30,979 nt of DNA from Candidatus Nanoarchaeia archaeon (GTDB lineage Archaea; Nanobdellota; Nanobdellia; Woesearchaeales; UBA10216): the NCBI GenBank assembly GCA_028279045.1, contig JANQSZ010000030.1, forward strand, positions 1 to 30,979, given 5' to 3'. The notes below the pieces were generated by a model. The model made no database searches. It had not been told where the DNA came from and saw only the letters and a list, made by a program, of their open reading frames with translations. A program made the translations under genes and the position numbers. Shown here one piece after another: positions 517 through 30,577 of this stretch (position 1 is the first letter of the stretch; every line of letters starts with the position of its first letter).

Positions 517-549
517 GAAAGTTCTGGAGAAGAAGTACTATTTATAGAT

Positions 550-912
550 TCAGTTGTAGATCCAATACTGAGGGAACTGCTCAATTGCTGCGTGTGCATT
601 ATCGCGCTCTTGTACTCTAGATCTATACTCACTGTTATCGTCAATTGATTTTCGAACAGTAAAGACTTCTACTAGAGCTGCAATACCTGTGACTACAGCA
701 AGCGCAACTCCTGCGATCACGTCGGTTTCGTCACCTGTAAATTCTTTGTACGACAGGTAGCCTGTGGCGACACCACCAATAGGGACAACTACATTTGCAG
801 TCATGGTGATTTTTTTGTCGACATTCAAACGTTCGACACTAAAATCTGCCCTTTGCACTCTCCTGAATGCATCCATGTACTCTGCTTCCTCTTCAGTAAG
901 GTCGTGTCCCAT
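550..912 (-). CDS. small two-TM membrane protein (paralog family)
   Basis: 120 aa with an acidic N-terminal head and a G-rich TM hairpin (VVVPIGGVATGYL...VIAGVALAVVTGIAALV). Own TATA-like element (about 933..942) lies about 25 nt upstream of the ATG. Confidence 0.6.
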   Translation of the reverse strand: MGHDLTEEEAEYMDAFRRVQRADFSVERLNVDKKITMTANVVVPIGGVATGYLSYKEFTGDETDVIAGVALAVVTGIAALVEVFTVRKSIDDNSEYRSRVQERDNAHAAIEQFPQYWIYN

Positions 913-1313: not shown

Positions 1314-1964
1314 ATGGAAAAAAAAGACATTTTAGAATCATTGAAACAAGTGCGCGATGGTAAGAAGCGCAAGTTTTCTCAGAGTGTTGATCTCATTGTT
1401 AATCTGAAGGATATTGATCTGAAGAAAAATGATCAACAAGTAGACTTCTTTGCACAGTTGCCGCATGCAGAAGGCAGCGGCATTGCAATCTGCGCTTTGG
1501 TAGGACCAGAGCTGAAAGATAATGCAACAGCAAACGTTGACACTGTTATTGAAGTTGATGACTTTCCAAAATATACTAAAGACAAGAAGCTTGCAAAAGC
1601 ACTTGCAGAAAAACACCAATTCTTTATTGCACAGGCAAACATCATGCCACAGGTTGCAACAGCATTTGGACGTGTATTGGGTCCTAAGGGAAAAATGCCA
1701 AATCCAAAAGCTGGTGGAGTTGTACCGCCAAAAGCAGACCTTGCACCACTAGTTGCTCGGTTAAAGAAAACACGACGTGTTTCTGCTAAGACAGCACCTG
1801 TTGTACACACACTTGTTGGAACCGAATCATTGAGTGATGAAGATCTTGCAGAAAACATTCTGAACATGTACAAACAAGTTCTTTCACATTTACCAAACGA
1901 AGAAGCAAACGTAAAATCTGCTTTCGTTAAACTAACAATGGGTAAGCCGGTGAAAGTAAGATGA
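1314..1964 (+). CDS. rpl1: 50S ribosomal protein uL1
   Basis: 216 aa. N-terminus ...KKRKFSQSVDLIVNLKDIDLKK... and ...GPKGKMPNPKAGGVVPP... are classic archaeal L1 signatures. GGAGG SD lies 6 nt upstream. The stop overlaps the next start (ATGA at 1961..1964). Confidence 0.95.
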   Translation: MEKKDILESLKQVRDGKKRKFSQSVDLIVNLKDIDLKKNDQQVDFFAQLPHAEGSGIAICALVGPELKDNATANVDTVIEVDDFPKYTKDKKLAKALAEKHQFFIAQANIMPQVATAFGRVLGPKGKMPNPKAGGVVPPKADLAPLVARLKKTRRVSAKTAPVVHTLVGTESLSDEDLAENILNMYKQVLSHLPNEEANVKSAFVKLTMGKPVKVR

Positions 1965-3532
1965 GTGAACACAAAGTAGCCGCGGAAAAAGTAGAGTTGG
2001 TCAAACAACTCAGAGAACTTATGGACGAATACCCAGTTGTTGCACTTGTTAACCTTGCTAACTTACCAGCACCGCAACTTCAAGTCATGCGTGCAAAATT
2101 GCGTGATTCGGTTGTTATGGTAACTGCTAAAAAACGGTTAATGCGTATTGCACTCGAGGGTGCTAAAGATAAAAAGCCAGGTATTGAACAACTTTCTGAT
2201 AAAATGAAAGGAATGCCTTCGCTTGTGTTTACGAAAGACAATCCATTCAAACTTGCAGGAATCCTGCGAGAAAATAAATCAAAAGCACCTGCAAAAGCAG
2301 GACAAGAAGCACCGAATGATATCATTGTTCCAGCTGGAGCAACACCATTTAGTCCAGGACCAGTTATTAGCGAACTTGGTTCAATTGGATTGAAGACTGG
2401 TGTTGAAGGCGGAAAAGTTGCTATCAAAGAAGATTCTGTTGTTGCAAAAGAAGGCGATGTTATCGACCAGAACATGGCAAACGTACTTGCAAAACTTGAG
2501 ATTCACCCAATGGAAATTGGATTGGACTTGACAGCTGCATACGAAGACGGAACAATCTTTGGTAAAGATGTACTATCAGTTGATCCACAAATTTACCGTG
2601 ATGAATTAACAGCAGCGATTGCTGAATCACACGCACTAACCATGGGAATTGGTTACATCACTGATGCAAACGCAGAAGCACTTGTACAAAAAGCATTCCG
2701 AGAAGCTCTCGGACTTGCTATTGACAAAGAAGTGTTGTCTGATGAATTGCTAAAGAAGCAAGTCGGCGATGCGTATGTTCAAATGAAAGCGCTGATGGGT
2801 AAGGCTAGTATTAGTGAGGATGCAGCTGAAGAACCAAAAGAAGATCCTGAACCAGAAGAACCGAAGGAAGAGCCTAAAGAAGAAGCTAAACCAGAGCCAA
2901 CTCCAGAAGCTCCTGCAGAAGAACCGAAAGAAGAACCTGCAGCTGAGTCTGAAAAAGTAGAAGAAACTCCTGCTGAACCAGAACCGGAGCCAAAGGAAGA
3001 AGCAACTCCTGAACCTGCACCGGAAGAGCCGAAAGAAGAGGCAGCGCCGGAGCCAGAAAAGGTTGAAGAGCCGCAACCAGAAGCAGAACCTGAACCAGAA
3101 AAAGTTGAGGAACCAGCTCCTGAAGAAGTGAAGGAAGAAGCAACTCCTGAACCAACTCCTGAAGAACCAAAGGAAGCTGAACCAAAAGAAGAAGCACCTG
3201 AAGTTCCTGAATCAGAACACGATGCAAGTGAAGCAGAACCGGAACTACCGCCGGAAAGAGAAGCTCCAGCACCTGAACAAGTTCAAGCACCAGTAGAACC
3301 AGAAAAGGTTGAAGAAAAACCTGCTGTTGCACCAGAAGCTGCAAAAGAAATTGATAGTGCAGTAAAAGACGCTCAAGAATTTTCACAAAAACAAGTGGAC
3401 AAAATTGAGGACGAGATCGATCAACAAATCGAAGAAATGCGTGTCAAGAAGGACGACGATGTTAGTACTGATCAAGATAAGATCGAAGAACTAACAAAGA
3501 AACTTCAGAAAAAAGGCACGTTACGAGACTAA
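1961..3532 (+). CDS. rplP0: ribosomal stalk protein uL10 (P0) with a very long acidic Pro/Glu-rich C-terminal extension
   Basis: The N-terminal ~285 aa are colinear with archaeal P0 (KVELVKQLRELMDEYPVVALVNLANLPAPQLQVMRAKLR..., PAGATPFSPGPVISELG). Residues 286-461 are EPKEE/PEPEKVEEP-type low complexity. The last 62 aa are a charged helix ending KKGTLRD. Position between rpl1 and rpl12. Confidence 0.9.
   Translation: MSEHKVAAEKVELVKQLRELMDEYPVVALVNLANLPAPQLQVMRAKLRDSVVMVTAKKRLMRIALEGAKDKKPGIEQLSDKMKGMPSLVFTKDNPFKLAGILRENKSKAPAKAGQEAPNDIIVPAGATPFSPGPVISELGSIGLKTGVEGGKVAIKEDSVVAKEGDVIDQNMANVLAKLEIHPMEIGLDLTAAYEDGTIFGKDVLSVDPQIYRDELTAAIAESHALTMGIGYITDANAEALVQKAFREALGLAIDKEVLSDELLKKQVGDAYVQMKALMGKASISEDAAEEPKEDPEPEEPKEEPKEEAKPEPTPEAPAEEPKEEPAAESEKVEETPAEPEPEPKEEATPEPAPEEPKEEAAPEPEKVEEPQPEAEPEPEKVEEPAPEEVKEEATPEPTPEEPKEAEPKEEAPEVPESEHDASEAEPELPPEREAPAPEQVQAPVEPEKVEEKPAVAPEAAKEIDSAVKDAQEFSQKQVDKIEDEIDQQIEEMRVKKDDDVSTDQDKIEELTKKLQKKGTLRD
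2816..3343 (+). repeat. degenerate in-frame Pro/Glu/Lys-rich repeat tract inside rplP0
   Basis: Recurring gaaccNaaagaagaa and gaaccagaaaaggttgaaga units encode EEPKEE and PEPEKVEEP (the latter motif appears three times). This tract generates the long spurious antisense ORFs 2750..3076 and 2886..3386. Confidence 0.85.
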
Positions 3533-12955: not shown

Positions 12956-14869
12956 ATGACAGAAGAGAATCACGTACTCGGGCTAGACAAAGACGGCTAT
13001 TTACGTCACCTTCTAGTGTATAATCCTAACGCTGATCTGAAACTGATTGGACGTGCGTATACTTATGCTGAAGAAGCGCACGCAGGCCAGAAACGGCTTT
13101 CAGGGGAACCGTATTTTGAACATGTTCGGAACGTAGCGCACATTATTGCTTCTTTGCGATTAGATTCTGCTACAATAGCTGCAGGGTTGTTGCATGATGT
13201 CATAGAAGACACGCCAATTACGGATAAACAGATTAAAAAAGAGTTTGGCAAGGAAATTCTTGAGTTGATTCAAGGAGTTACCAAAATTGACAATGCACAA
13301 ATCAAGCTGGACAGTGATGAAGAACGCCGCGCAGAGAATGTGCGGAAGGTATTGCTTGCTACGATTAAGGATATTCGTGTTATTTTGATTAAATTGGCTG
13401 ATCGATTACATAATATGCGAACACTGAAGCACAAATCAATAACAGAACAAAAACGGATTGCGAAAGAAACACTTGAGATTTACGTACCGATTGCGTACAA
13501 ACTTGGAATATATCGTATCAAGAGTGAATTAGAAGATTTATGCATGCGATTCTTGATGCCTCATGTGTATCAGAACTTGAAATCACAAATTTCTCGAACA
13601 AAAGAAGAACGTGAACGAGAAGTTGCGGTGAATACGAAAAAGATTGCTGCGTTGTTGAAACGGAAAGAGATTGAAGCAGAAGTTTATGGGCGGGCGAAGA
13701 ATTTCTTTAGCATTTACAAGAAAATGCGGCGCAAGGATTTGAAGTTCAAGGAAATTCATGATTTGAGTGCGATGAGAGTTGTCGTTAAGAATATTGATGA
13801 CTGTTATCGTGTACTTGCATTGTTGCACGAAACATTTCAGCCAATACCAGGGCGGTTTGATGATTACATTTCCACACCGAAGCCGAACATGTATCAATCG
13901 TTGCATACTGAAGTTGTTATTGATGGTAAACCAGCAGAAGTGCAAGTACGTACGTCGGAAATGCACTATGTGGCAGAAGAAGGAATTGCAGCGCACTGGC
14001 GATATAAGGATACTGATCGCGATAAGAAGTTTGATCGAACAATTGGTTGGTTGAAGCAGATTTTGGAATGGAAACGAAGTGCGAACGCGAAAGAATTCAT
14101 TGAAAATTTGAAGATTGATGTTTTCAAAGATGAAATTTATGTGTTAACACCGAAAGGCGATCCTATACCACTACCCGAAGGAGCGACGCCGATAGATTTT
14201 GCTTATCGTGTGCATAGCGGAGTTGGAGATCGTTGTGTTTCTGCGAAAGTGAACAACAACATTGTGCCGTTGGACCATCAGCTCGGAAGCGGAGATGTTG
14301 TTGAAATTTTAACACGGAGAAATGCACTGCCATCTCGTAACTGGTTGAAGTTTGCGAAGACGAACACTGCGAAGAGTAAAATTCGGCAAAAATTGGGTAT
14401 GACGCAGGAACGCGATCCTAAACAAGAACGGGAATTGATGCGAGAATATTTGTTGGAGAAGATTGATGCTCCTGATAATGCGAAGTTGCGATTATCGCAA
14501 GATTGTCGATGTGAATACGGACGTGCGATCACCGGATATCGCATGAAAGATGGTCGAATTAGTGTGCATAACTTGGGATGTGAAAGTTTGAATAGTTTGA
14601 ACAAGAAAAATATTGTTCCGTTGTCGTGGAAAGAACATGGGCAGGTTAATGTTTCTAAGATTCAAGTGCAAGCGACAGATCGAACAGGATTGTTTTCTGA
14701 TTTGTTGAATACGTTTACTGAAGAGCAGATGAAAGTGAATGCGATCCATACCAAGACAAGAAAAGATAAGTTCCACATTGTGTTTGAAGTGGAAGATATT
14801 GAGCGTGCTGGAGACGTTGTTACTAAGCTAAAACAGATTCGGAACGTTGTAGGTGTGAGTGCTGCATAA
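12956..14869 (+). CDS. rel: long RelA/SpoT homologue, bifunctional (p)ppGpp synthetase/hydrolase architecture (HD-SYNTH-TGS-helical-ZFD-ACT)
   Basis: HD: HAGQKRLSGEPYFEH...LLHDVIEDT...ADRLHNMRT. Synthetase: GRAKNFFSIYKKM, DLSAMRVVV, YISTPKPNMYQSLHT, EVQVRTSEMHYVAEEGIAAHWRYK. TGS: IYVLTPKGDPIPLPEGATPIDFAYRVHSGVGDRC. Zn-finger-like: CRCEYGRAITGY...ISVHNLGCESL. ACT: VQATDRTGLFSDLLNTF. 637 aa. Confidence 0.93.
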   Translation: MTEENHVLGLDKDGYLRHLLVYNPNADLKLIGRAYTYAEEAHAGQKRLSGEPYFEHVRNVAHIIASLRLDSATIAAGLLHDVIEDTPITDKQIKKEFGKEILELIQGVTKIDNAQIKLDSDEERRAENVRKVLLATIKDIRVILIKLADRLHNMRTLKHKSITEQKRIAKETLEIYVPIAYKLGIYRIKSELEDLCMRFLMPHVYQNLKSQISRTKEEREREVAVNTKKIAALLKRKEIEAEVYGRAKNFFSIYKKMRRKDLKFKEIHDLSAMRVVVKNIDDCYRVLALLHETFQPIPGRFDDYISTPKPNMYQSLHTEVVIDGKPAEVQVRTSEMHYVAEEGIAAHWRYKDTDRDKKFDRTIGWLKQILEWKRSANAKEFIENLKIDVFKDEIYVLTPKGDPIPLPEGATPIDFAYRVHSGVGDRCVSAKVNNNIVPLDHQLGSGDVVEILTRRNALPSRNWLKFAKTNTAKSKIRQKLGMTQERDPKQERELMREYLLEKIDAPDNAKLRLSQDCRCEYGRAITGYRMKDGRISVHNLGCESLNSLNKKNIVPLSWKEHGQVNVSKIQVQATDRTGLFSDLLNTFTEEQMKVNAIHTKTRKDKFHIVFEVEDIERAGDVVTKLKQIRNVVGVSAA

Positions 14870-21033: not shown

Positions 21034-21534
21034 TTAACTCATGAGCTTCTTTGTGAGAGTGAGTTGGCGGGCTTTGATTGTTTTCTTGCCGTTTGTGATA
21101 TTCAAGGATGCTTCTCGGATTTTGGTGCAGTGCTCTACGATCTTGTGGACTTCCACCTCGAAACCAGCTTTTTGCAAGAGGGGAATGCACTTTTTTTGGC
21201 GTTTGCTTAATTGTTCGTGTCCTAATTTGCACTCTACGAATTTGAACTGGCCGTGGCGGAAACAAATGAAGTCAGGCATGCCGTGATGGACAGCGCAGAG
21301 ATATTCGAGGTACTCTCGCTTCTTTGGATGGTACTTGTCAAGAAGGTGATGTAGTAATTGATAGCGGAAGCGAACATTGGGGTAGACTTCGTCCATTCTT
21401 AGGATGTTAATTGCACCGCCCCGCCAGACTTCCCAGCCTTGCTTTTGCAAGCGTTGCTTGATGAGTTTTTCTGATAAGCCTACGCGGTTTTTGTAATTTC
21501 TACGCAGCGGAATGTAGTAAACGGTGAGGTACAT
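21034..21534 (-). CDS. PD-(D/E)xK nuclease (VRR-NUC / Hjc-like)
   Basis: GLSEKLIKQRLQKQGWEVWRGG ... GMPDFICF..GQFKFVECK...LSKRQ...LQKAGFEVEV gives an E...PD...E-x-K arrangement. ATG at 21534 is preferred because the upstream 46 codons of the track ORF run through the tRNA gene. Confidence 0.6.
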   Translation of the reverse strand: MYLTVYYIPLRRNYKNRVGLSEKLIKQRLQKQGWEVWRGGAINILRMDEVYPNVRFRYQLLHHLLDKYHPKKREYLEYLCAVHHGMPDFICFRHGQFKFVECKLGHEQLSKRQKKCIPLLQKAGFEVEVHKIVEHCTKIREASLNITNGKKTIKARQLTLTKKLMS

Positions 21535-21546
21535 GATTAGAAAGTG

Positions 21547-21715
21547 CGCCGGCGCTGGGACACAACACAATCTACGATTGTGTGTGCATAAAATCGAAGA
21601 TTTTATTGCATTCAACTCACCGGCCAGTACGTCGACCGAAAAGTTTTTGAACCCAGGAGTTCTTTCGGACACTGAGGTCTTAACTCAGCGGCTTACCGGA
21701 CTAGCCTACGCCGGC
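21547..21715 (-). tRNA. class II tRNA-Leu with an 85-nt intron in the T-loop; anticodon loop UUAAGAC (anticodon AAG by standard numbering)
   Basis: Hand-folded cloverleaf: GCCGGCG-UA-GGCU-AGUCCGGUA-AGCC-G-CUGAG-UUAAGAC-CUCAG, 15-nt variable arm, CUGGG-UUCAAA[intron]U-CCCAG-CGCCGGC-G. G18G19 and the UUCAAAU T-loop are present after intron removal. No encoded CCA. Mature length is about 84 nt. Intron borders are +/-2 nt. Confidence 0.75.
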
Positions 21716-21818
21716 ACACTACATTTCTTCCTGTGTCGGAATTTATTCTTTCACTCTTTTTTCTCGTAAATCTTTCGAAAGAAGTCTGTTTATATTCTCT
21801 GCGGGTGGTTGGCCAGTG

Positions 21819-22064: not shown

Positions 22065-22090
22065 TGATTAATTTTTGGTGATGGTGGTAT

Positions 22091-22594
22091 TTATAGATTG
22101 GGTTTAGAACTCAGCTCAGCTGCGTAACTTTGTTCAACTGTACGATCCAACTCTGTTGGAAATCCTCTTGGCATAAGATGTTCTTGCCTCATTTGATTTC
22201 CCCATTGAGCGTTGCGTACAATTGTTTCCATCGGCAATCCTGAATCGTACCCTATGCTTTGAGCCAATCTCGTGATCACGTTACCCGCAAAAAGCGCTTC
22301 ACTAGAACGGATAACAACATCAAGAAGACCTAGTTTGAATGCGTCCCCTAACTCACCAGCTGAGAATAACTCACCGCTGCTCAAATTAATCACCATATCG
22401 GGCAATGCCCCATACGTAGGTATTGTGTATTGGCCGTCACGCCACATTTCTTGGTGGTTTTCTCGGCCAGCGTGAACGTCTGCCTGCAATGCCAACTCAG
22501 GCACGAAACGCCATTGCCTTTGCTGAGCTGCTACATACTCACGAATTTCACTAATATGGTCATCAGTCATGCGGCCGATTGATTGTGGATTCAT
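22091..22594 (-). CDS. hypothetical protein
   Basis: 167-aa ORF. A TATA-like AATTATAA lies about 28 nt upstream of the ATG. No motif recognised. Confidence 0.5.
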   Translation of the reverse strand: MNPQSIGRMTDDHISEIREYVAAQQRQWRFVPELALQADVHAGRENHQEMWRDGQYTIPTYGALPDMVINLSSGELFSAGELGDAFKLGLLDVVIRSSEALFAGNVITRLAQSIGYDSGLPMETIVRNAQWGNQMRQEHLMPRGFPTELDRTVEQSYAAELSSKPNL

Positions 22595-22671
22595 ATGAGA
22601 TGGTAAGTGTTGTTTAGTTATAATTCTTTCTCAAAGGAATCTATTTATAATGGTAGAATATTCTTATCTAC

Positions 22672-23049
22672 ATGAACCAAGACGAACTCGTAGCTATGTT
22701 TAACAAACTGAAGAAGTTAATGAAGCCGTACGAGAAACACTTTACGAAAAAGTTTGACTTGGATAGCAAATATGACTTGTGGTCTGTTAAGGATTTGGTT
22801 ATTGAAGGCCGGAAGCGAAAAGAAGTGTTTTTCGCTGGGCTGATTATACAAAGTAGTTATGTAGGATTCTATTACATGCCGATTTATGTTGAGAAAGATA
22901 TGGCAACGGTATTTGAGCCTGAATTGTTGGCTACATTGAAAGGGAAATCGTGCTTTCATATTAAGAAGTTGGACGCAAAACTTGAGAAGCAAATTGCAAT
23001 TGCGCTGAAGAAAGGATTTGCACTGTATAAGAAACGCGGCTGGGTCTAG
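22672..23049 (+). CDS. hypothetical protein, possibly YdhG/DUF1801-like
   Basis: 125 aa. The ...YYMPIY......L..LKGKSCFHIKKLD... pattern is reminiscent of that family. TTTATAA (22644..22650) is centred 25 nt upstream (leaderless). Confidence 0.4.
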   Translation: MNQDELVAMFNKLKKLMKPYEKHFTKKFDLDSKYDLWSVKDLVIEGRKRKEVFFAGLIIQSSYVGFYYMPIYVEKDMATVFEPELLATLKGKSCFHIKKLDAKLEKQIAIALKKGFALYKKRGWV

Positions 23050-24005
23050 TTTTTTTCAACGTACTCGTAGACAGTTTGTGAAACTTCTGCTATCACTTTA
23101 TTCGCTTGATCGTTTGAAGTGTCTTTACTCATAATGCATATAAGATACGGAGATGAAGCGTACACGATGCCACAGTCATGGTGACTCTGATCGTTTTCAT
23201 TAACGCCAATTTTATGAGCGACTATGACGTGCTTTGGAACACCGGCTGGAATTCCTTCTTCAAATTCTGTTTTAGTCAGCAGCGAAAGTGCGAATTGTGA
23301 AAAGGGTCTTCGTAGATAATTAGAGTAATAAAGTGTGCGGAAAACGGTGCTATATTTCTTAGGAGAGATGATCGTGGGCTGTTCTGGATTAGGGAGAGGT
23401 ATGTCCGTGGCAAGACGTGCTTCCTCAAGAGACTTTCGCGAAAGTAATCTGCGCAGTGTTCTCGATGCTGTATTGTCAGATTCAAGTGCAATCAATTCTA
23501 ACAGTTCCTCGACTGAAATAACATATGCGTCTCCTTTTCCTACCAGATTTCCGGACCGAATATTAAAATCGTCCTCATTCACTTTCACATCCTTGTCCAA
23601 GGAAAGTTTGCCTTGCTCTATTTGCTTGAGCGCAGCAATCATTGTGGATACTTTGAGCAAGCTTGCAGGGACATATTCTTCACCTTCATTCACGCCAATC
23701 CACGAACCAGTTGCCAGATCTTCATAGTACATACTGTATGTTCCGGGCTGAGAAAGTAGTATTCTGCTGACCTGCTGCCGAAGCGGGCGATAGGCTAGGG
23801 TGTATGAATCCTGTTGATTAAGAAATTCATCCATATTAACTTGAGCAGCTTGCGGATTAAGGAGTTCATATTTGGTATCTTCAACAGTAACAAATCCTGT
23901 CGGAGAGTTTCCTTTTCCAACCACAAACGCTAAGATAAGAATTATGACGAACTGGACTAGGATTAAACTATAGAGTCTTGTTTTTGTGATACGGAAGCGT
24001 ACCAC
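23046..24005 (-). CDS. membrane-anchored class A beta-lactamase-fold serine hydrolase
   Basis: N-terminal TM (LYSLILVQFVIILILAFVV). S-x-x-K as PASLLKV, SDN as LESDNTAS, and a KTG-like AHKIGV. GTG start. Confidence 0.7.
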   Translation of the reverse strand: MVRFRITKTRLYSLILVQFVIILILAFVVGKGNSPTGFVTVEDTKYELLNPQAAQVNMDEFLNQQDSYTLAYRPLRQQVSRILLSQPGTYSMYYEDLATGSWIGVNEGEEYVPASLLKVSTMIAALKQIEQGKLSLDKDVKVNEDDFNIRSGNLVGKGDAYVISVEELLELIALESDNTASRTLRRLLSRKSLEEARLATDIPLPNPEQPTIISPKKYSTVFRTLYYSNYLRRPFSQFALSLLTKTEFEEGIPAGVPKHVIVAHKIGVNENDQSHHDCGIVYASSPYLICIMSKDTSNDQANKVIAEVSQTVYEYVEKN

Positions 24006-24051
24006 TGTGCACCCCCATGAAATGGGGTATTGTTGAAGGATAAAAACCTTC

Positions 24052-25263
24052 CTAAATAATTACATTGATGAAGATGTAGATGAACGTTAATGGAATGAAT
24101 GAGATAAGATAGACTGATTTCTTCCAGGCCCATACCTTCTTGCCGCCGAATGGAGTAAAGGGAAGCATTTGTAGGAATGTAATGCCTAATGCGAGCAGCA
24201 TCACCATTTGGTAGATAGTTGATGGGTTGAGGAAGTTGAGAACAAAGAAAACTCCGAAAGCGATGAACGTCATGAAATTGACGATGAATGCGTGCTTACC
24301 TTCGTGCTCGTTTTCCTTTTCATCAGAAGCAACATAGCCTGCTAGCGAGAAGGTGTTACCGAGCCACGCTGTTAACGCGGTAACGATTGCGCCGTACAAC
24401 CAAATCTTGTATTCGGTATGGAGGCCGTGTTTCTTGTCTAAATAAAGACGCACTCCATTACGAACTGCGTAGACAACCATGTTAACGACAATTGTTAAGA
24501 GGAAAAATTGTGCTGCAGGAGAATTTGGAGAGAGATACATGTATCCTAGAGAGATTGCAAATATGGATGCAGAAATTAAGATGGCGAACCATTCTCGTAA
24601 TTTGAGGCGGACACCAGCTGCGTGGAAACCAAGGAACTCGTCCTTGACAGATTTTTTGTTTACCCATTTCATTACTTTGCTGGCGAGGAACAATGAGAAT
24701 ACTCGTTTGAGTACTTTTATGATAAGTTGCCAGAACCACAAGAATGAGATACCGACTAGCGTTGCGGCAGCAGGAACGTATTCTTCTGGGATGACTTTAT
24801 TGAGTGGTGAACGAGAAGCAGCTGTTTGCGGTTCGTTGGCATGACCTGTTTTATCGGAGACAACCATGAACCTGCCTTGTGGTCCTTCAAGAAATGTTGT
24901 GATGCCAACGCTAGTTGCGTCTTCATCTTTGGTTAGTGTGGGATCGTTAATGAGATCATTTGAGTATTCAGAATTCTTCGGGCCGCCGATGACGATAACT
25001 GTTTTGCCTTCAATAGCTTCTGGTGTTAGATCTTCTTCTGCAATGCGCTCGACGCTTGCTAATTGACTGTATTTCTCTTGAACAAACGCAAGGGTTGCTT
25101 TCTCTGTTAATGAAGCGTGCTGGCCTTCAACAATAATAATGTCAGGGTTTTCCTGCACAAACTCACGAACTTTGACTTCTAACTCTGCCAGGTCTTCTGT
25201 GAGTTGAGCAGACGCTACCGGAAGCAAGAAAAGGAGTAGTAAGAGTACACCAGCTTTTTTCAC
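24052..25263 (-). CDS. membrane protein with signal peptide, extracytoplasmic domain and a C-terminal polytopic domain resembling a degenerate site-2 protease (M50) core
   Basis: Signal MKKAGVLLLLLFLLPVASAQ. The segments YAVRNGVRLYLDKKHGLHTEYKIWLYGA and LQMLPFTPFGGKKVW align by eye with the M50 HExxH-helix/KKxG and NxxPxxxxDGG regions, but the metal ligands are substituted. A separate HEGKH string is present. GTG start with GGTGAT SD. Confidence 0.35.
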   Translation of the reverse strand: MKKAGVLLLLLFLLPVASAQLTEDLAELEVKVREFVQENPDIIIVEGQHASLTEKATLAFVQEKYSQLASVERIAEEDLTPEAIEGKTVIVIGGPKNSEYSNDLINDPTLTKDEDATSVGITTFLEGPQGRFMVVSDKTGHANEPQTAASRSPLNKVIPEEYVPAAATLVGISFLWFWQLIIKVLKRVFSLFLASKVMKWVNKKSVKDEFLGFHAAGVRLKLREWFAILISASIFAISLGYMYLSPNSPAAQFFLLTIVVNMVVYAVRNGVRLYLDKKHGLHTEYKIWLYGAIVTALTAWLGNTFSLAGYVASDEKENEHEGKHAFIVNFMTFIAFGVFFVLNFLNPSTIYQMVMLLALGITFLQMLPFTPFGGKKVWAWKKSVYLISFIPLTFIYIFINVII

Positions 25264-25295
25264 CTAATCACCATAACTCTGGAAAGAAACGTGGT

Positions 25296-25565
25296 TTATA
25301 AAGGTTGGGATATGTCATACTGGCGCATTTCTTCTTGCTGCTCTCTTCTGAACGCTTCATAAATAAGCGGTCGCTCATTGCGCATCTGTTCATCGTTGAT
25401 AAATGCAGTGCGGGCGATGGATGCTGTAAGGTTTACCATGCTGGTGTATCCGAGTACTTCGTCTTGCCGTCCTTCGTGTGCAATTTCATCAAGCTGCGCT
25501 CCATAATGAGACATGAAATGCTCTAAGTCTTTCTGTAGTGGGCTTTTTTCATTGTTGTTTGTCAT
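25296..25565 (-). CDS. hypothetical small helical protein
   Basis: 89-aa ORF, divergent from the 25718 ORF. No motif recognised. Confidence 0.45.
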   Translation of the reverse strand: MTNNNEKSPLQKDLEHFMSHYGAQLDEIAHEGRQDEVLGYTSMVNLTASIARTAFINDEQMRNERPLIYEAFRREQQEEMRQYDISQPL

Positions 25566-25717
25566 AGAGAATTATTTGTTTCTTGTTAAAAGAAAGGTTT
25601 CTGAAGAAAAAGCAAAAATGATTCGACCTGTTTCGAAAATCTTCCGGTTTTCGTCGGGAAATTCACTTAAAAGAACATTAGACTACGTTGAAGTTACAAA
25701 CAATTAGGTGATGCGAC

Positions 25718-25945
25718 ATGTACAAAAGCGAAGAAATGATGAGAGATTTTAGCGATGCATTGTTTGAAATGGTCCAAAAATATTGCGACGATTTTCAAGA
25801 AGATCCAAGTCAGTACACTACTGCAGATGTAATCGGAATTTTCAACTTGGGTCTTGATTTCCTTAGCATTAGAGAACTTTCTCGAGATCCGCGAAGATCA
25901 AAGACGATTGAGATGCTTGATGAAGTACGCGCAAACTATAAATAG
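25718..25945 (+). CDS. hypothetical small helical protein
   Basis: 75-aa ORF with AGGTGAT SD at 25703..25709. Its 3' end contains the TATA of the next gene. Confidence 0.5.
   Translation: MYKSEEMMRDFSDALFEMVQKYCDDFQEDPSQYTTADVIGIFNLGLDFLSIRELSRDPRRSKTIEMLDEVRANYK
25936..25945 (+). promoter_or_regulatory. TATA box of the ATPase gene (leaderless), embedded in the last codons of the upstream ORF
   Basis: CTATAAATAG is centred 27 nt upstream of the ATG at 25967. Confidence 0.5.
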
Positions 25946-25966
25946 ACTTGATATAGTGGCAAGTTC

Positions 25967-26776
25967 ATGCCACGAAAGAAACATCACCCTGCTGTTGCTG
26001 CGAGTGGAGCAATAGCAAAAGGACTCTGGTGGGTGAGTAAAAAGACTGGGAAAGGCGTCGTAGCTGTTGCTAAAAAGAGTGGGAAGGCTGCGAAGAAACG
26101 CAGAGTGAAAACCCGGAAGACGAAGCCGACAGAGAAAGGATACGAGCAGTTGAAAATAGTTAACTCTGTAGCAGGGGAGTTTGATGATTTTTTGAACGTG
26201 CTGCACAACAGAAGCACGATTGCACTTGTGTTTGGTAAGAGAGGAAGCGGAAAGTCAACACTTGGCTTTAGATTGTTGGAAAACTTGCGGAGTAAAACAG
26301 GACGGCCTTGTTTTGTTCTCGGAGTGAAGCAAGATTTGTTACCGAACTGGATACAAGAAATTAGTGATATAGAAGCTGTTGAAAATGGCGGCGTTGTTTT
26401 GGTAGATGAAGGGGCTGTGACGTTTAATTCTCGCGAATCGATGCGGGAACAGAATGTTGAGCTTGGTAAATTGTTAGCGATTGCGCGTCATAAGGATTTA
26501 TCTGTCATTTTCTTGACGCAAAATACAGGAAGTATTGACAAAAACGTGTTGAACCTTGCGGACATTATTTTTGCAAAAGAAGGAAGTTTGTTACAACAAC
26601 AAATGGAACGTGCTGCTTTGCGGAACTTTGTTACGAAAGCAGATGGGGCGATTAAAGAGTATCCGAAGCATGAGCGAGTTTCCTATTCTTACGTGTTCTC
26701 AGATGACTTTGAGGGATTGCTGCACGTGCCTCTACCTAGTTTCTGGGACGAGAACGTGAGTAAGAGTCATTCGTAA
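25967..26776 (+). CDS. P-loop NTPase, HerA/FtsK-superfamily-like (A32-like / plasmid-virus type), with a Lys-rich N-terminal tail
   Basis: Walker A VFGKRGSGKST, Walker B GVVLVDEGA, and then LLAIARHKDLSVIFLTQNTGSIDKNVL, which resembles the arginine-finger/sensor region of HerA/FtsK-type ATPases. The first ~55 aa are K/R/A-rich. Confidence 0.65.
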   Translation: MPRKKHHPAVAASGAIAKGLWWVSKKTGKGVVAVAKKSGKAAKKRRVKTRKTKPTEKGYEQLKIVNSVAGEFDDFLNVLHNRSTIALVFGKRGSGKSTLGFRLLENLRSKTGRPCFVLGVKQDLLPNWIQEISDIEAVENGGVVLVDEGAVTFNSRESMREQNVELGKLLAIARHKDLSVIFLTQNTGSIDKNVLNLADIIFAKEGSLLQQQMERAALRNFVTKADGAIKEYPKHERVSYSYVFSDDFEGLLHVPLPSFWDENVSKSHS

Positions 26777-26812
26777 GCAAAGTTTATATAGAGCGTTTTC
26801 TCTAGAATTTCT

Positions 26813-27853
26813 ATGAAATGGGCCGTGATTGTGCTTCTGTTCTTAGCTGCGTGTACTCCTGCAGCTGAGGAGGCTGTGGTTGATATCGACTTTGTTGAAG
26901 AAGTTGAAGAGCTAGAGCCAGTCGATCCGAGTCCGGAGCCGGAAGTTGTTCCGGAAGCAATGGCGCGTTTCCAAATTGAACGGAGTAATGCAGAATGGTC
27001 GCCTGAAGACGATCGGTTGATTGCAAACTACTTTCTTTACGAAGACGGTGAGCCACTAGTTGACGCACCGTTTGTTATTGAATATACGGTAGATGGCGAA
27101 GTTGAACGACAAGAAGGACGGACGACGAAAATTGGCAAAGCAGAAGCGTTGTTGAAAGAACCTGAACCAGGAGTATATTCTTTTGTGCTTTTGGATGTTG
27201 ACGGAGAATCGCTTGACAACGAAGTGTTGGATGTGCTTGTAACTTCTACCAAATTAACGTTTAGCGATCTTAGTGTGGAATACCGACGAGGAGAAGATTA
27301 TCCTGTCGGCGGTGTTGTGCTGTTTTTCTGGGAGACGGAAAAGTTCTTTGATAGGAATGCTCGGGTTGAACTAGAATTTGAATGGCCAGATGGCGATTCG
27401 GAAACACATGTTGTTGATTACAATAGAACAATTCAGTTTGCGATGCAGTACACTAGTGATGAACCAGGAGCGAAGTATCGTGCGCGCGTGTTGCGTGTTT
27501 TAGATGGTGATGCAAGCGAAGGGGAGATTGTGTATACTGTTCCGGATCGCGATATCACTGTTGTTAACTCTGGTGTTATTGAACGTGTGGATCCAGAAGA
27601 TGAAACAGAGAAACCAACGTTCTGGTGGAAGCTGGATCAGGATGGGAAGGGGATGTTCGATGTTGTGCTGGATGTGGAATGGGTAGAAGGATCTGCCCAA
27701 TGGTTTGAGCAATCTGATGCAGAAGGGAATGTGTATGCGTATGTGGATAGCTACCTTGGAAATGGGGTTGCGATGAGCATTGTGAGCGCTTCTCGCTCAG
27801 ATGGCGGGTCAGGCTCCTATACAGGAGATGGCGACGATCTCGTACTGAGCTAA
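26813..27853 (+). CDS. secreted acidic lipoprotein, beta-rich
   Basis: MKWAVIVLLFLAACTP has a lipobox-like LAAC, followed by an acidic linker and beta-strand-like repeats. TTTATATA (26783..26790) is centred about 26 nt upstream (leaderless). Confidence 0.6.
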   Translation: MKWAVIVLLFLAACTPAAEEAVVDIDFVEEVEELEPVDPSPEPEVVPEAMARFQIERSNAEWSPEDDRLIANYFLYEDGEPLVDAPFVIEYTVDGEVERQEGRTTKIGKAEALLKEPEPGVYSFVLLDVDGESLDNEVLDVLVTSTKLTFSDLSVEYRRGEDYPVGGVVLFFWETEKFFDRNARVELEFEWPDGDSETHVVDYNRTIQFAMQYTSDEPGAKYRARVLRVLDGDASEGEIVYTVPDRDITVVNSGVIERVDPEDETEKPTFWWKLDQDGKGMFDVVLDVEWVEGSAQWFEQSDAEGNVYAYVDSYLGNGVAMSIVSASRSDGGSGSYTGDGDDLVLS

Positions 27854-27861
27854 CAGAAGGA

Positions 27862-27869
27862 TTTATAAA
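27862..27869 (+). promoter_or_regulatory. candidate TATA box giving a ~220-nt leader for csp
   Basis: TTTATAAA is the only TATA-like element between the upstream stop (27853) and the csp ATG (28115). It is followed by TAGTCA-a-TAGTCA (27884..27896) at the predicted start site. Confidence 0.4.
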
Positions 27870-27989
27870 GGGATAGCGTCTCGTAGTCAATAGTCAGTAT
27901 CAGTGGTGATTTCTGATTCAACAAGCATATGAATTGCACGCAAGGGAATGGAACAGACCAAATAGTCAGATTTCGTTCTGGAGCATACA

Positions 27990-28118
27990 GTGGTTGATTA
28001 CAAAATTGTGCGCTACTGTTGGCTTTGCAAAAAGCGATTTGTTGTTGGAAAAGGAGAATCAAAACGAAATTCCTGTGATGACTGTCAAGAAAAACTAAAC
28101 CGAGAGGAATCAGAATGA
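27990..28118 (+). CDS. possible small zinc-ribbon protein / upstream ORF overlapping the csp start
   Basis: Not in the track. Open frame from 27966 with no ATG; candidate GTG starts at 27990 and 28008. It encodes ...YCWLCKKRFVVGKGESKRNSCDDCQEKLNREESE (C-x2-C-x17-C-x2-C). Its TGA (28116..28118) overlaps the csp ATG (28115..28117). Confidence 0.35.
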   Translation: MVDYKIVRYCWLCKKRFVVGKGESKRNSCDDCQEKLNREESE

Positions 28119-28306
28119 ACGGAACAGTAAAATTTTTTAACCAGAGTAAGGGATTCGGCTTCATTGCCGGAGACGACGAAAAAGAATACTTCGTGCATGT
28201 AAGTGCATTGAAGGAAGGCGAAACTTTGAATGACGGCGACGCTGTTACATTTGAAGTAGAGCAAGGCGATCGCGGTCCTAAAGCAGTTAATGTGAATAAG
28301 GCGTAA
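28115..28306 (+). CDS. csp: cold-shock protein (CspA family, CSD)
   Basis: MNGTVKFFNQSKGFGFI (RNP1) ... EYFVHVSAL (RNP2) ... GPKAVNV. 63 aa. Confidence 0.93.
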   Translation: MNGTVKFFNQSKGFGFIAGDDEKEYFVHVSALKEGETLNDGDAVTFEVEQGDRGPKAVNVNKA

Positions 28307-28311
28307 TTGTG

Positions 28312-28325
28312 TTTTTTCTTTTTTT
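28312..28325 (+). terminator. oligo-T terminator after csp
   Basis: ttttttcttttttt starts 6 nt after the stop and is followed by TTTATAAA (28333..28340) for the next gene. Confidence 0.5.
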
Positions 28326-28371
28326 CATTATTTTTATAAATGGCTTCTGATTACTTTTTTCCGGTGTTACG

Positions 28372-29187
28372 ATGACCCTTGAAAAAGCTATAGATGTGTA
28401 CGTATCTCTTCTTGAGCGAGGAGGCCGAGTGTTGACTCCGAGAGAAGTAGATCTCAGAAAGCTTGCAGACTTGCGTGCTGCTGCCCAGGAATCTGAAGCA
28501 GCGTTAGAGGGCTTTGGAACGCTTGAGGATGTACGCAATTTCGGAATACGGCTTGTTCGAGATCCAGATCGCATTACAGCATCCAGTTTCTACAACTTTG
28601 CTTTTGATGAAGCAGATTTTACACTGAGCATTTATGCAGAGGATGATCATGAAAGAAAGGAAGCACCAATAAAAGTTATTGAAGTGAATCAATCCCAGGG
28701 ATTGATACTCCGTTCTGTTTTTGGTTCAGGTGGAGATCACGTGAACAGAGCTGAGTTTTGCGAACAATATGGGTTTAGCAGAAGCGCTTTAGGGGTTCAT
28801 TTAGCGAGATTGCGCAGAAAAGTTGGAGTTCCAATCGTTGAATCACACTATGTTGGTAGCATGCGATTGCACAGACAACTAGACGAGCCTGTTCAGATTG
28901 GTGATGTGGAATACGATCCAGGAACAGGAAAAGCACTTCAGAATGGAAGCGAAATTCGAATACACAGCGGACCTCAGCAAGTCCTTAACGCACTTCTTGA
29001 TAACAGAGGGCAAGTACTGTCTCTTCAAAATCTTGCAGACCTGTCGAGTATCACTAGACCCGCCTCGGCGCTCACATACATTAGCAGAATTAGAAGTGCT
29101 ATCGACCCTAAGGTTATTGAAACAGTTGAAGGGGGATATCGCATGCCTCTTCAAGAAGAACTTAATCAAAATAATCTTCGTAGCTGA
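28372..29187 (+). CDS. DNA-binding protein with two tandem OmpR/PhoB-type winged-helix domains and no receiver domain
   Basis: Domain 1: NQSQGLILRSVF...VNRAEFCEQYG...ALGVHLARLRRKVGVPIVES...GSMRL. Domain 2: GPQQVLNALLDNRGQVLSLQNLADL...ASALTYISRIRSAIDPKVIETVEGGYRM. Both fit the Trans_reg_C pattern (L..L....G.V.S...L.........A....I.R+R..+....I.TV.G.GYR+). Confidence 0.7.
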   Translation: MTLEKAIDVYVSLLERGGRVLTPREVDLRKLADLRAAAQESEAALEGFGTLEDVRNFGIRLVRDPDRITASSFYNFAFDEADFTLSIYAEDDHERKEAPIKVIEVNQSQGLILRSVFGSGGDHVNRAEFCEQYGFSRSALGVHLARLRRKVGVPIVESHYVGSMRLHRQLDEPVQIGDVEYDPGTGKALQNGSEIRIHSGPQQVLNALLDNRGQVLSLQNLADLSSITRPASALTYISRIRSAIDPKVIETVEGGYRMPLQEELNQNNLRS

Positions 29188-29581
29188 ACGATTTTCTTCC
29201 TTCGTAGGTGCAGTTTCCTTTCTCGTCGATGATGTTGCCGAGGAATTCTCTAAATTCTGCGCGCATTAGTGTGCAATCGCTGCAACGTTTGAAATCAGTT
29301 CCTACTTTTATTGTGAAATTCTTTTCGTCTTGCCGTTCTAATTTTGTTGGAGTAGATAGTCTCGATTGAACTTGATTAAATATTGTGGTGATGAAACGGT
29401 CATCGGTGATCGCGTCGGATAACGTTAAATGAAGGATGCATTCTTTTGGGGCGTCTAATTTTGTTACTTCTCTTCTTACTTTCATAATCTTGTGATGCTT
29501 CATCTTGTATTCTTTTTCTTCTCGTGACTTTTGCATATGAGAAGGAAGTTTTATTGAACCATCAGGATTGAATTCGACCAT
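29162..29581 (-). CDS. hypothetical protein
   Basis: 139-aa ORF with a 26-nt convergent overlap with the wHTH gene. No motif recognised. Confidence 0.5.
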   Translation of the reverse strand: MVEFNPDGSIKLPSHMQKSREEKEYKMKHHKIMKVRREVTKLDAPKECILHLTLSDAITDDRFITTIFNQVQSRLSTPTKLERQDEKNFTIKVGTDFKRCSDCTLMRAEFREFLGNIIDEKGNCTYEGRKSFSYEDYFD

Positions 29582-29616
29582 AGGAAATTTAAGAAAGTGA
29601 TTGTTGATAAAGATTG

Positions 29617-29886
29617 TTATAACAGATAACTTTCAAATGCATCATCAAAGGCTTGCCTACCTGCTTCTGTCAAAACGACGTTAGCATAACCCCGGAAATA
29701 CTTTGCTTTACGCAGTGCATGTACATCGCGCTCAACAGAAGACCTGTTTTTCCGGTATTGAAAGTCACAATGACCAAGATCTGCTTCCTTGAACGAATCA
29801 CCAGGTTCCAGTTCTCGAATCGCTTCTATGAACGGAACACCAGATACAATCACTTCTGTTCCTACTATCATATATTCTGTCTGCAT
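29617..29886 (-). CDS. hypothetical small protein, possible C-terminal winged-helix
   Basis: 89 aa. The C-terminal ...VHALRKAKYFRGYANVVLTEAGRQAF resembles the recognition-helix/wing end of MarR/PadR-like wHTH proteins. This is weak. Confidence 0.4.
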   Translation of the reverse strand: MQTEYMIVGTEVIVSGVPFIEAIRELEPGDSFKEADLGHCDFQYRKNRSSVERDVHALRKAKYFRGYANVVLTEAGRQAFDDAFESYLL

Positions 29887-29940
29887 TCACAACACCAGCC
29901 AAGCAGAGTCTTGATGGTGTTTTTAAATTTGATGGATATA

Positions 29941-30369
29941 TCAGAAGAAGCTCTGTGTTGATGCATACGCGTCGCAACCGGCAATGGCGAGAATTGCTAA
30001 GAGAATCAGTGCAATGCCAATTCTGAGTCGTAATGTTTCAGAGATTTTGTGGAGTACAACGAAGAATGCAACATATGATGCCAAATAGGCACCCATTAAG
30101 ATAAATCCGAGTAATTCGTTCTTCACACTAAAAAGATGCAGGAACCCGCTACCAAGCATTTGGAAACCCATGAGATTCATAGATGCGGCAATCAGTGGCA
30201 CCCAAACTAGATCCTTGGGAAAAAGTCCTCCAGAAACTACTGTGGAAAACGCAAAAATCAACAAATCAATGATGACTTTGGCCACATACAATCCAACTGG
30301 CATGACCATCCAAAACGTTCTTTTTTCAAATTTTTTTTCTGTGTAAGCTTTCAATCTCTGGAAGTCCAT
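29941..30369 (-). CDS. four-TM membrane protein
   Basis: 142-aa ORF with four hydrophobic helices, located directly downstream (minus sense) of the tRNA at 30413..30526. Confidence 0.55.
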   Translation of the reverse strand: MDFQRLKAYTEKKFEKRTFWMVMPVGLYVAKVIIDLLIFAFSTVVSGGLFPKDLVWVPLIAASMNLMGFQMLGSGFLHLFSVKNELLGFILMGAYLASYVAFFVVLHKISETLRLRIGIALILLAILAIAGCDAYASTQSFF

Positions 30370-30412
30370 ACTTGTTTACTTGCTTTGAGAGTATAAAACT
30401 GTTTTGGAAGTG

Positions 30413-30526
30413 CGCCGGCGCAGGGAGATTCAACTCTTGGCTGTCACCACAAAGTTTTTGAACCCCGAAGCCCTAACGGGCACTAAGGTTTGAGCTTAGC
30501 GGCCTCGCCAATGGCCGTGCGCCGGC
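30413..30526 (-). tRNA. class II tRNA-Leu (anticodon CAA) with a 30-nt intron in the T-loop
   Basis: Hand-folded: GCCGGCG-CAC-GGCC-AUUGGCGA-GGCC-G-CUAAG-CUCAAAC-CUUAG-U-GCCC-GUUA-GGGC-UU-CGGGG-UUCAAA[30-nt intron]U-CCCUG-CGCCGGC-G. The acceptor stem is identical to the tRNA at 21547..21715. Mature length is about 84 nt. No encoded CCA. Confidence 0.8.
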
Positions 30527-30577
30527 ACAAAACATTTTATGTCGGCACTTCTTTTTATTCGCTACGCGCGTTAAAAT

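Follow-up and report, generated by a model that had tools for sequence, protein, structure and literature searches.

Introns at tRNA position 59/60 and at other non-canonical positions are established in archaea with broad-specificity splicing endonucleases (PMC3239211; PMC4090602). The relaxed forms of the archaeal bulge–helix–bulge (BHB) splicing motif that have been published (HBh', hBH/BHL) have bulges of 1–4 nt or lack one bulge (PMC3239211; PMC4090602), the endonuclease cut falls after the second bulge nucleotide (PMC5829648), and the ARMAN-2 enzyme has been shown in vitro to cut a relaxed hBH intron located at 59/60 (PMC3239211). The alpha4 endonucleases of DPANN lineages, Woesearchaeota among them, have an L3 loop and have been linked to disrupted tRNA genes; incomplete tRNA sets are frequent in these lineages (PMC5829648). 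Moreover, ARMAN-4 and ARMAN-5 use tRNA-Leu(AAG) in place of the G34 isoacceptor tRNA-Leu(GAG) (PMC3239211). Here we describe a tRNA-Leu(AAG) gene on contig JANQSZ010000030.1 (30,979 nt, the whole of which was analysed and is referred to as the window), in which the usual splicing signal of a T-loop intron is half broken by hairpins at one of the two cutting sites. With a probability of roughly 45%, we read it as a relaxed (HBh'-type) BHB intron that would still be removed by a broad-specificity endonuclease, within a working tRNA-Leu(AAG). Judged by sequence comparison, the intron shares an ancestor with that of a second window gene, tRNA-Leu(CAA), and the host is a Woesearchaeota/Nanoarchaeia-like DPANN archaeon.

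The locus resembles that of ARMAN-2 in its DPANN host, its T-loop intron at 59/60, the use of the T-stem as the outer helix, a BHB half that departs from the 3-4-3 rule, and the failure of standard tRNA finders to detect it. It differs in that the known relaxed cases lack one bulge or have bulges of 1–4 nt, whereas the 3' bulge of tRNA-Leu(AAG) holds a 48-nt two-hairpin domain; furthermore, the ARMAN-2 substrate was cleaved in vitro, whereas cleavage of the present one is predicted. Like the tRNA-Leu(AAG) of ARMAN-4 and ARMAN-5, it is a DPANN tRNA-Leu that belongs to a four-codon box and has A34, but the window copy also has an aberrant intron. Introns at 59/60, relaxed BHB motifs and the replacement of the G34 form by Leu(AAG) have all been published for ARMAN (PMC3239211). 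A model-written first-pass annotation of this DNA had presented the intron position and A34 as atypical; A34 is indeed very rare in archaea, but 59/60 introns and Leu(AAG) were already on record (PMC3239211). No precedent for a folded two-hairpin domain within a BHB bulge was found in the literature examined.

The gene spans 21715..21547 on the minus strand, with ends GCCGGCG...CGCCGGC-G. Its parts, assigned by in-silico splicing with ARAGORN and by the Rfam tRNA match, are:

21646..21715, minus strand: 5' exon, tRNA positions 1–59, comprising the acceptor 5' strand, D arm, anticodon arm, long variable arm, T-stem 5' strand and T-loop UUCAAA
21679..21681, minus strand: anticodon AAG with A34 at 21681 (ARAGORN, anticodon at linear position 35)
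21547..21560, minus strand: 3' exon, comprising U60, T-stem 3' strand CCCAG, acceptor 3' strand CGCCGGC and discriminator G73

Including the trailer, the minus strand reads from 21715 to 21544 as GCCGGCG-UA-GGCU...AGCC-G-CUGAG-UUAAGAC-CUCAG-(14-nt variable arm)-CUGGG-UUCAAA-(85-nt intron)-U-CCCAG-CGCCGGC-G-CAC. In-silico removal of 21645..21561 (85 nt), which lies between positions 59 and 60 inside the T-loop, gave an 85-nt product that ARAGORN called as tRNA-Leu(aag), in agreement with the first-pass claim of a tRNA-Leu gene with an 85-nt T-loop intron. Removal thus restores a canonical cloverleaf, as with a BHB tRNA intron. The acceptor (7 bp), D (4 bp), anticodon (5 bp) and T (5 bp) stems of the product are intact, with all 21 bp paired, the T-loop is UUCAAAU, and the conserved tertiary positions U8, A14, G18G19, U33 and GUUCAAAU are retained. 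The 14-nt variable arm and the Leu anticodon are those of a class II tRNA-Leu, and the anticodon loop UUAAGAC (21683..21677) encodes A34, as had been annotated.

Neither ARAGORN nor Rfam, the latter at its gathering score and at E ≤ 10, detected a tRNA anywhere in the raw window, and both therefore miss the unspliced gene. When Rfam was run locally and permissively, the tRNA model RF00005 (gathering score 29) matched the 5' three-quarters (21710..21637) with 20.6 bits; no other credible family was found, and none besides tRNA reached E = 1. An exhaustive single-deletion scan with ARAGORN proved too permissive for ranking splice sites, and the alternative small-deletion "tRNAs" that it produced were ruled out by their mismatched stems. 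A canonical 37/38 intron solution does not exist, since the anticodon loop is already intact.

The 59/60 intron recurs in two comparison genes. The first, tRNA-Leu(CAA), lies at 30526..30410 on the minus strand and has a 30-nt intron at 59/60 (30456..30427), placed by in-silico splicing with ARAGORN. A BHB scan found in it a strict hBHBh' motif, with the T-stem as a 5-bp outer helix, UUCA/UGAA as the central helix, ACUUU/AGAGU as a 5-bp inner helix, and the bulges AA|A and UC|U (the bar marks the cut). The second was the one real relative among 117 matches, mostly bacterial chance, returned by a scan of genome contigs with a loose pattern: a tRNA-Leu(GAG) on Nanoarchaeota metagenome-assembled genome contig JBBSVZ010000049 (4090..4202; hereafter L074), with a 25-nt intron at 59/60. 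The L074 intron has a strict BHB with the same central helix and AA|A bulge as the window genes, an inner helix starting AACUUUU, and the 3' bulge AC|U; the genes that flank this tRNA are unrelated.

Across the three genes, the insertion point, UUCA/UGAA, AA|A, the inner-helix start AACUUU and G73 are shared, and all three introns contain GGUUCAAAAACUUU and AGUUGAA. In contrast with tRNA-Leu(AAG), tRNA-Leu(CAA) has the 3-nt 3' bulge UC|U, an intron of 30 nt and C34 as its wobble base; the corresponding features of L074 are AC|U, also of 3 nt, an intron of 25 nt and G34. The blocks GGGUUCAAAAACUUU and GAGUUGAAU are exact in both window genes, as the first-pass annotation had stated, while the hairpin interiors differ. 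On the strength of these shared blocks, the introns of tRNA-Leu(AAG) and tRNA-Leu(CAA) are homologous by sequence, and the tRNA-Leu genes of this lineage seem to be characterised by introns at 59/60. As the BHB-forming blocks of the two window genes are identical (15/15 and 9/9) while the intron interior diverges, the comparison suggests that selection acts on the splicing elements. The anticodon and T stems of these two genes differ by compensatory changes. The archaeal Leu identity element is the discriminator A73; G73 is found instead in tRNA-Leu(AAG), tRNA-Leu(CAA) and L074 (21547, 30413 and L074 4199), and is more plausibly a trait of the lineage than a defect. None of the three genes encodes CCA.

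The elements of the splicing motif and of the insertion in tRNA-Leu(AAG) are:

21648..21651, minus strand: 5' strand of the central BHB helix, U54–A57 (UUCA), pairing with UGAA 21611..21614
21645..21647, minus strand: 5' bulge A58 A59|A, with the predicted 5' splice site between 21646 and 21645
21615..21644, minus strand: inner intron hairpin, with helix h' ACUU/GAGU and a 7-bp stem 21639..21619
21611..21614, minus strand: 3' strand of the central BHB helix, UGAA
21586..21609, minus strand: hairpin unit 1, GCAAUAAAAUCUUCGAUUUUAUGC, with a perfect 8-bp core 21606..21588 and a 3-nt loop
21562..21585, minus strand: hairpin unit 2, ACACACAAUCGUAGAUUGUGUUGU, with a perfect 8-bp core 21583..21565 and a 3-nt loop
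21560..21561, minus strand: predicted 3' splice site G(21561)|U60(21560), placed by alignment with UC|U and AC|U

The gene thus retains its outer helix (the T-stem), its 4-bp central helix (UUCA/UGAA) and its inner helix, together with the 5' bulge AA|A. The sequence and register of the 5' bulge are the same in all three genes, and the helix ends of the inner hairpin are conserved with tRNA-Leu(CAA), although its interior differs and is longer (21 nt vs 14 nt, i.e. 7 extra nt besides the insertion). With the predicted 5' site AA|A in a three-nucleotide bulge between helices UUCA/UGAA and ACUU/GAGU, the intron has the arrangement of a relaxed HBh'/hBH form, in which at least one splice site lies in such a bulge. 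Of the options listed at first pass, the relaxed BHB variant is accordingly the one consistent with the anatomy. On the 3' side, U + 48 nt + G|U replaces the 3-nt bulge of the relatives, so that the 48-nt block sits between nucleotides 1 and 2 of this bulge, and U 21610, G 21561 and U60 are the counterparts of the canonical three nucleotides. The predicted cuts at AA|A and G|U would fit cleavage after the second bulge nucleotide.

Folding of the T-arm plus intron gave a minimum free energy (MFE) of -35.5 kcal/mol, compared with -35.3 kcal/mol for a BHB-competent fold that holds the T-stem, the central helix, the AAA bulge and the inner helix plus both hairpins; in the unconstrained ensemble, the central-helix pairs had probabilities of 0.42–0.56. 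Because the gap is only 0.2 kcal/mol, the 5' half of the splicing motif is, by this modelling, compatible with the insertion. The predicted 3' site abuts the T-stem. In one near-optimal fold, U, G and U alone are unpaired between UGAA and CCCAG; in the MFE fold, however, U60 is paired.

The first-pass annotation had placed a 51-nt insertion at the 3-nt 3' bulge of the other gene. The site was right, but the net insertion relative to tRNA-Leu(CAA) is 48 nt, 51 nt being the length of the resulting 3' "bulge". The two perfect 8-bp hairpins were found exactly at the positions then given, 21588..21606 and 21565..21583. The insertion divides into two 24-nt hairpin units, each extendable to 10 bp with a single bulged base, which are near inverse copies: unit 2 matches the reverse complement of unit 1 at 17/24 positions and unit 1 in direct orientation at 9/24. 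Tandem Repeats Finder detected no repeat in the insertion, where the relation between the units is inverted and not direct. Two arm positions distinguish the hairpin cores, each with a compensating change in the opposite arm; as palindromes, the two share an AATC-N3-GATT core at 23-bp spacing. Perfect hairpins of 8 bp with a 3-nt loop are as frequent in the window as expected by chance (4 vs a mean of 3.7); of 200 Markov simulations, only 2 produced two such hairpins side by side, and the folding z of the 50-nt block was -3.3. The insertion is bordered by a UG...UG repeat, and its removal would recreate UGAA-UG|U.

The flanks of the gene and the gene downstream bear on its expression:

21742..21747, minus strand: AATAAA, TATA-like element 32..27 nt upstream of tRNA position 1, inferred promoter
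21544..21546, minus strand: trailer CAC, pairing with leader UGU(G) 21716..21719, no encoded CCA
21034..21534, minus strand: VRR-NUC nuclease gene (Pfam PF08774), with ATG at 21534, 9 nt past the tRNA trailer

An AATAAA also stands upstream of tRNA-Leu(CAA), at -33..-28, and L074 has TATATG near -30. Promoter spacing predicts a leader of just 2–3 nt. Both window genes have UGU before position 1 and GCACUU after position 72, and in both, as had been annotated, the leader UGU can pair with G73-C-A and so extend the acceptor helix (21716..21719 with 21544..21547, and 30527..30529 with 30411..30413); L074 allows two such pairs only. The motif of mRNA promoters, AAxCTATAAATA, was found upstream of 17 of the 40 genes examined, usually starting 32–35 nt before the ATG (e.g. 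22099..22088 before ATG 22064, and 550..539 before ATG 516). This start about 34 nt before the ATG suggests that mRNAs are mostly leaderless. A promoter matrix learned from these 17 window genes (motif at -34) does not match the AATAAA upstream of tRNA-Leu(AAG), and it stays below 3 bits everywhere in the insertion on the gene's strand.

The VRR-NUC gene has no promoter motif of its own (best matrix score -4.6) and would most simply be co-transcribed with the tRNA. Gene callers start its open reading frame at a GTG within the intron-containing tRNA gene (21034..21672, minus strand; 212 aa), and the 212-aa product stands in the protein database as its own cluster. This extension, run through the tRNA, is an annotation error, since M47 of the 212-aa frame aligns with the first residue of the homologues; the true start is ATG 21534, which gives 166 aa. 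These homologues have at most 60% identity, the nearest named relatives being from Woesearchaeota, Nanoarchaeia and Nanobdellota; no tRNA lies upstream among the homologue loci examined. The neighbouring Zn-ribbon gene has no indexed homologue.

In the mechanism that we propose under the relaxed-intron reading, the precursor would be transcribed from its own AATAAA element with a 2–3-nt leader and would fold into a four-way junction, in which the two extra hairpins stand beside the T-stem and the BHB helix with its inner hairpin. This relaxed HBh' substrate would be cut after A59 and before U60 by a splicing endonuclease of broad specificity, and an RtcB-type ligase would join the exons. With A34, modified or not, the mature tRNA would then decode both CUU and CUC, as has been suggested for ARMAN-4 and ARMAN-5, while read-through of the tRNA transcript probably supplies the promoter-less VRR-NUC gene. 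The clean spliced cloverleaf, the canonical relatives, the near-MFE BHB fold and the structured insertion support this reading, as do the identity of the BHB-forming blocks, the compensatory exon differences between the window genes, the archaeal host and the published ARMAN and DPANN cases (PMC3239211; PMC5829648). Pfam scans found neither a splicing endonuclease nor an RtcB ligase encoded in the 31-kb window.

A number of observations weigh against it. A34 occurs in 3 of the 10,517 archaeal tRNAs of GtRNAdb, all of them from four-codon boxes, and TadA/ADAT is apparently absent from archaea (bioRxiv 10.64898/2026.05.15.725136; PMC11066159); a Pfam scan of 30 window proteins likewise returned no deaminase domain. 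CUC is not depleted in the window (131 CUC vs 180 CUU), where C/(U+C) for CUY codons is 0.42, above most four-codon boxes. For that reason, unmodified A34 would be a poor sole decoder of CUY, and an adaptation of codon usage to it was rejected. Either A34 must be modified, or its reading of C tolerable, or a further tRNA-Leu encoded elsewhere in the genome. With regard to splicing, the BHB scan that recovers tRNA-Leu(CAA) found no strict hBHBh' motif in tRNA-Leu(AAG), U60 is paired at the base of hairpin 2 in the MFE fold instead of being bulged, and published relaxed motifs do not have a 51-nt structured bulge (PMC3239211). The cloverleaf, described at first pass as clean once the 85 nt are removed, is so in its four main stems, but in its variable-arm stem one C.A mismatch stands in place of the C-G pair of the two related Leu genes. 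Finally, no relative with the insertion was found in pattern scans of genome, metagenome and viral contigs: a metagenome-contig scan with a pattern requiring a large insertion gave four matches, all chance, and viral-contig scans with each hairpin, the intron pattern and the anticodon arm gave chance matches or none.

The main rival reading, which could also explain these observations, is decay. In this possible but doubtful history, a duplicated tRNA-Leu(GAG) acquired A in place of G34, a G-to-A substitution within its variable stem and a palindromic insertion of 48 nt that abolished the BHB on its 3' side, and with these changes it lost its function and is no longer spliced. Such a paralogue may persist merely because it is recent or through co-transcription with the nuclease gene. 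The coincidence of A34, the C.A mismatch and the disrupted 3' bulge in one gene speaks for decay, as do the near absence of A34 from archaeal tRNA sets (bioRxiv 10.64898/2026.05.15.725136), the common CUC codons, which demand G34 or another decoder somewhere in the genome, and an insertion that is unique, with no conserved counterpart in the contig pattern scans. However, the 21/21 bp of the main stems and the conserved tertiary positions are intact and the 5' half of the BHB is unchanged, the insertion occupies the sole place that spares both flanking helices and the three bulge nucleotides, and the compensated hairpin differences suggest time spent under structural constraint; moreover, Leu(AAG) functionally replaces Leu(GAG) in other DPANN archaea (PMC3239211). 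That the twin palindromes serve the VRR-NUC gene and not the tRNA, whether as an internal promoter/terminator pair (an incipient split tRNA), a protein operator, or a processing element of a tRNA–mRNA co-transcript, is improbable. The ATG that follows 9 nt past the trailer with no promoter motif between, and the common AATC-N3-GATT core at 23-bp spacing, are consistent with such a role. Hairpin 1 also holds AATAAAA and TTTTAT, which resemble the tRNA-type AATAAA and the TTTTATAC upstream of gene 30369, although AATAAA is a short, common word and the likeness is a weak lead. Against it, the embedded promoter suggested at first pass gains nothing from the genome's own matrix, with its scores below 3 bits throughout the insertion, mirrored compensated differences are predicted by nucleic-acid pairing and not by the binding of a single protein, and relatives of the nuclease gene have no tRNA upstream.

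The first-pass annotation had also raised a nested second intron and an embedded small RNA, neither of which was borne out. In the former case, the 48–51 nt would be a separate BHB intron whose removal restores a canonical motif for the other. ARMAN-2 has multiple introns, including two in one T-loop (53/54 and 59/60; PMC3239211), and the flanking UG...UG repeat, with excision recreating UGAA-UG|U, invites the idea. Nonetheless, an exhaustive scan for a 4-bp helix with 3-nt bulges found no nested BHB in or around the insertion, even with one central-helix mismatch allowed, and after either removal the remaining 3' side has no UGAA to pair with UUCA. A SPLITS-like procedure, in which the intron of every strict BHB in the window on both strands was removed before ARAGORN was run, recovered tRNA-Leu(CAA) and no other gene; it thus misses the unspliced tRNA-Leu(AAG), as does ARAGORN, and nesting is very unlikely. 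Archaeal tRNA introns can host guide RNAs, as in the Haloferax tRNA-Trp case, with a C/D-box guide in the euryarchaeal tRNA-Trp intron, and the insertion is structured. A C/D-box guide or a ribozyme embedded here is nevertheless barely credible: the intron sequence has no C (RUGAUGA) or D (CUGA) box, the local permissive scan gave no Rfam snoRNA match and no non-tRNA family at E = 1, and two closed hairpins take up almost all of the 48 nt, with no room for a guide region.

On a bolder view, which is unlikely, the two hairpins might be a selected part of the splicing substrate, or the locus might be on its way from an intron-containing to a split tRNA gene. For the split tRNAs of Nanoarchaeum equitans, relaxed-BHB processing by a broad-specificity endonuclease has likewise been proposed (PMC4090602), and those split genes would be a possible evolutionary neighbour if the insertion carried a promoter. 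Unlike them, the window halves are contiguous and show neither a promoter motif in the insertion, before the 3' half, nor a complementary leader/trailer helix; read from the sequence, the two intron halves have no complementarity. Selected hairpins would make this the first BHB-type intron whose 3' splice-site bulge bears a folded domain, and would imply that the DPANN alpha4+L3 endonuclease needs no more than the T-stem and the intact 5' half to locate the 3' site. Were either course true, the locus would yield a functional A34 tRNA-Leu in an archaeon, one that has to read abundant CUC without a known deaminase.

Should the intron be spliced, the endonuclease rule of a 3-nt (at most 1–4-nt) bulge per cut would need loosening for DPANN enzymes, and tRNA finders would need to admit structured insertions in BHB bulges, which could help account for the incomplete DPANN tRNA sets (PMC5829648). 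A further A34 tRNA-Leu in a CUC-using archaeon also bears on how DPANN archaea decode with A34, given the apparent absence of TadA/ADAT from archaea. If instead the gene is a pseudogene, it would be a snapshot of tRNA intron disruption by a small palindromic insertion. As a separate observation, the core of tRNA-Leu(CAA), with which the intron was compared, is unusual: it has C-A-C (3 nt) between the acceptor and D stems and C, not U, at position 8. ARAGORN finds it only without the strict-spacer option, and its best local Rfam match is the tRNA-Sec model (26.4 bits). It admits an alternative fold with a 9-bp acceptor and a 3-bp T stem, which we take to resemble the 9/3 "allo-tRNA" architecture described in bacteria.

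The window is archaeal, as it encodes TFB and ribosomal L10P/P0, and a Logan contig from SRR20820731 is 100% identical to it over 9.9 kb. The 8.7 kb between the co-oriented tRNA-Leu genes (22091..30369) hold mostly ORFans, together with a Zot-like/P-loop ATPase, a winged-helix protein and a class-A beta-lactamase-like protein. This block could be an integrated element; it has no integrase, and no partial tRNA copy (att repeat) was found elsewhere in the window. Palindromes TTTATAAA occur at 1251, 18779, 25295, 27862 and 28333, between divergent genes. The ribosomal P0/L10 homologue (1961..3532, plus strand; 523 aa) carries its L10 and insertion domains within roughly the first 180 residues; the C-terminal region beyond them is very long and has no domain assignment. 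A full-length RelA/SpoT homologue (RSH) with HD, synthetase, TGS and ACT domains is encoded at 12956..14869 on the plus strand; long RSH enzymes are unusual in archaea.

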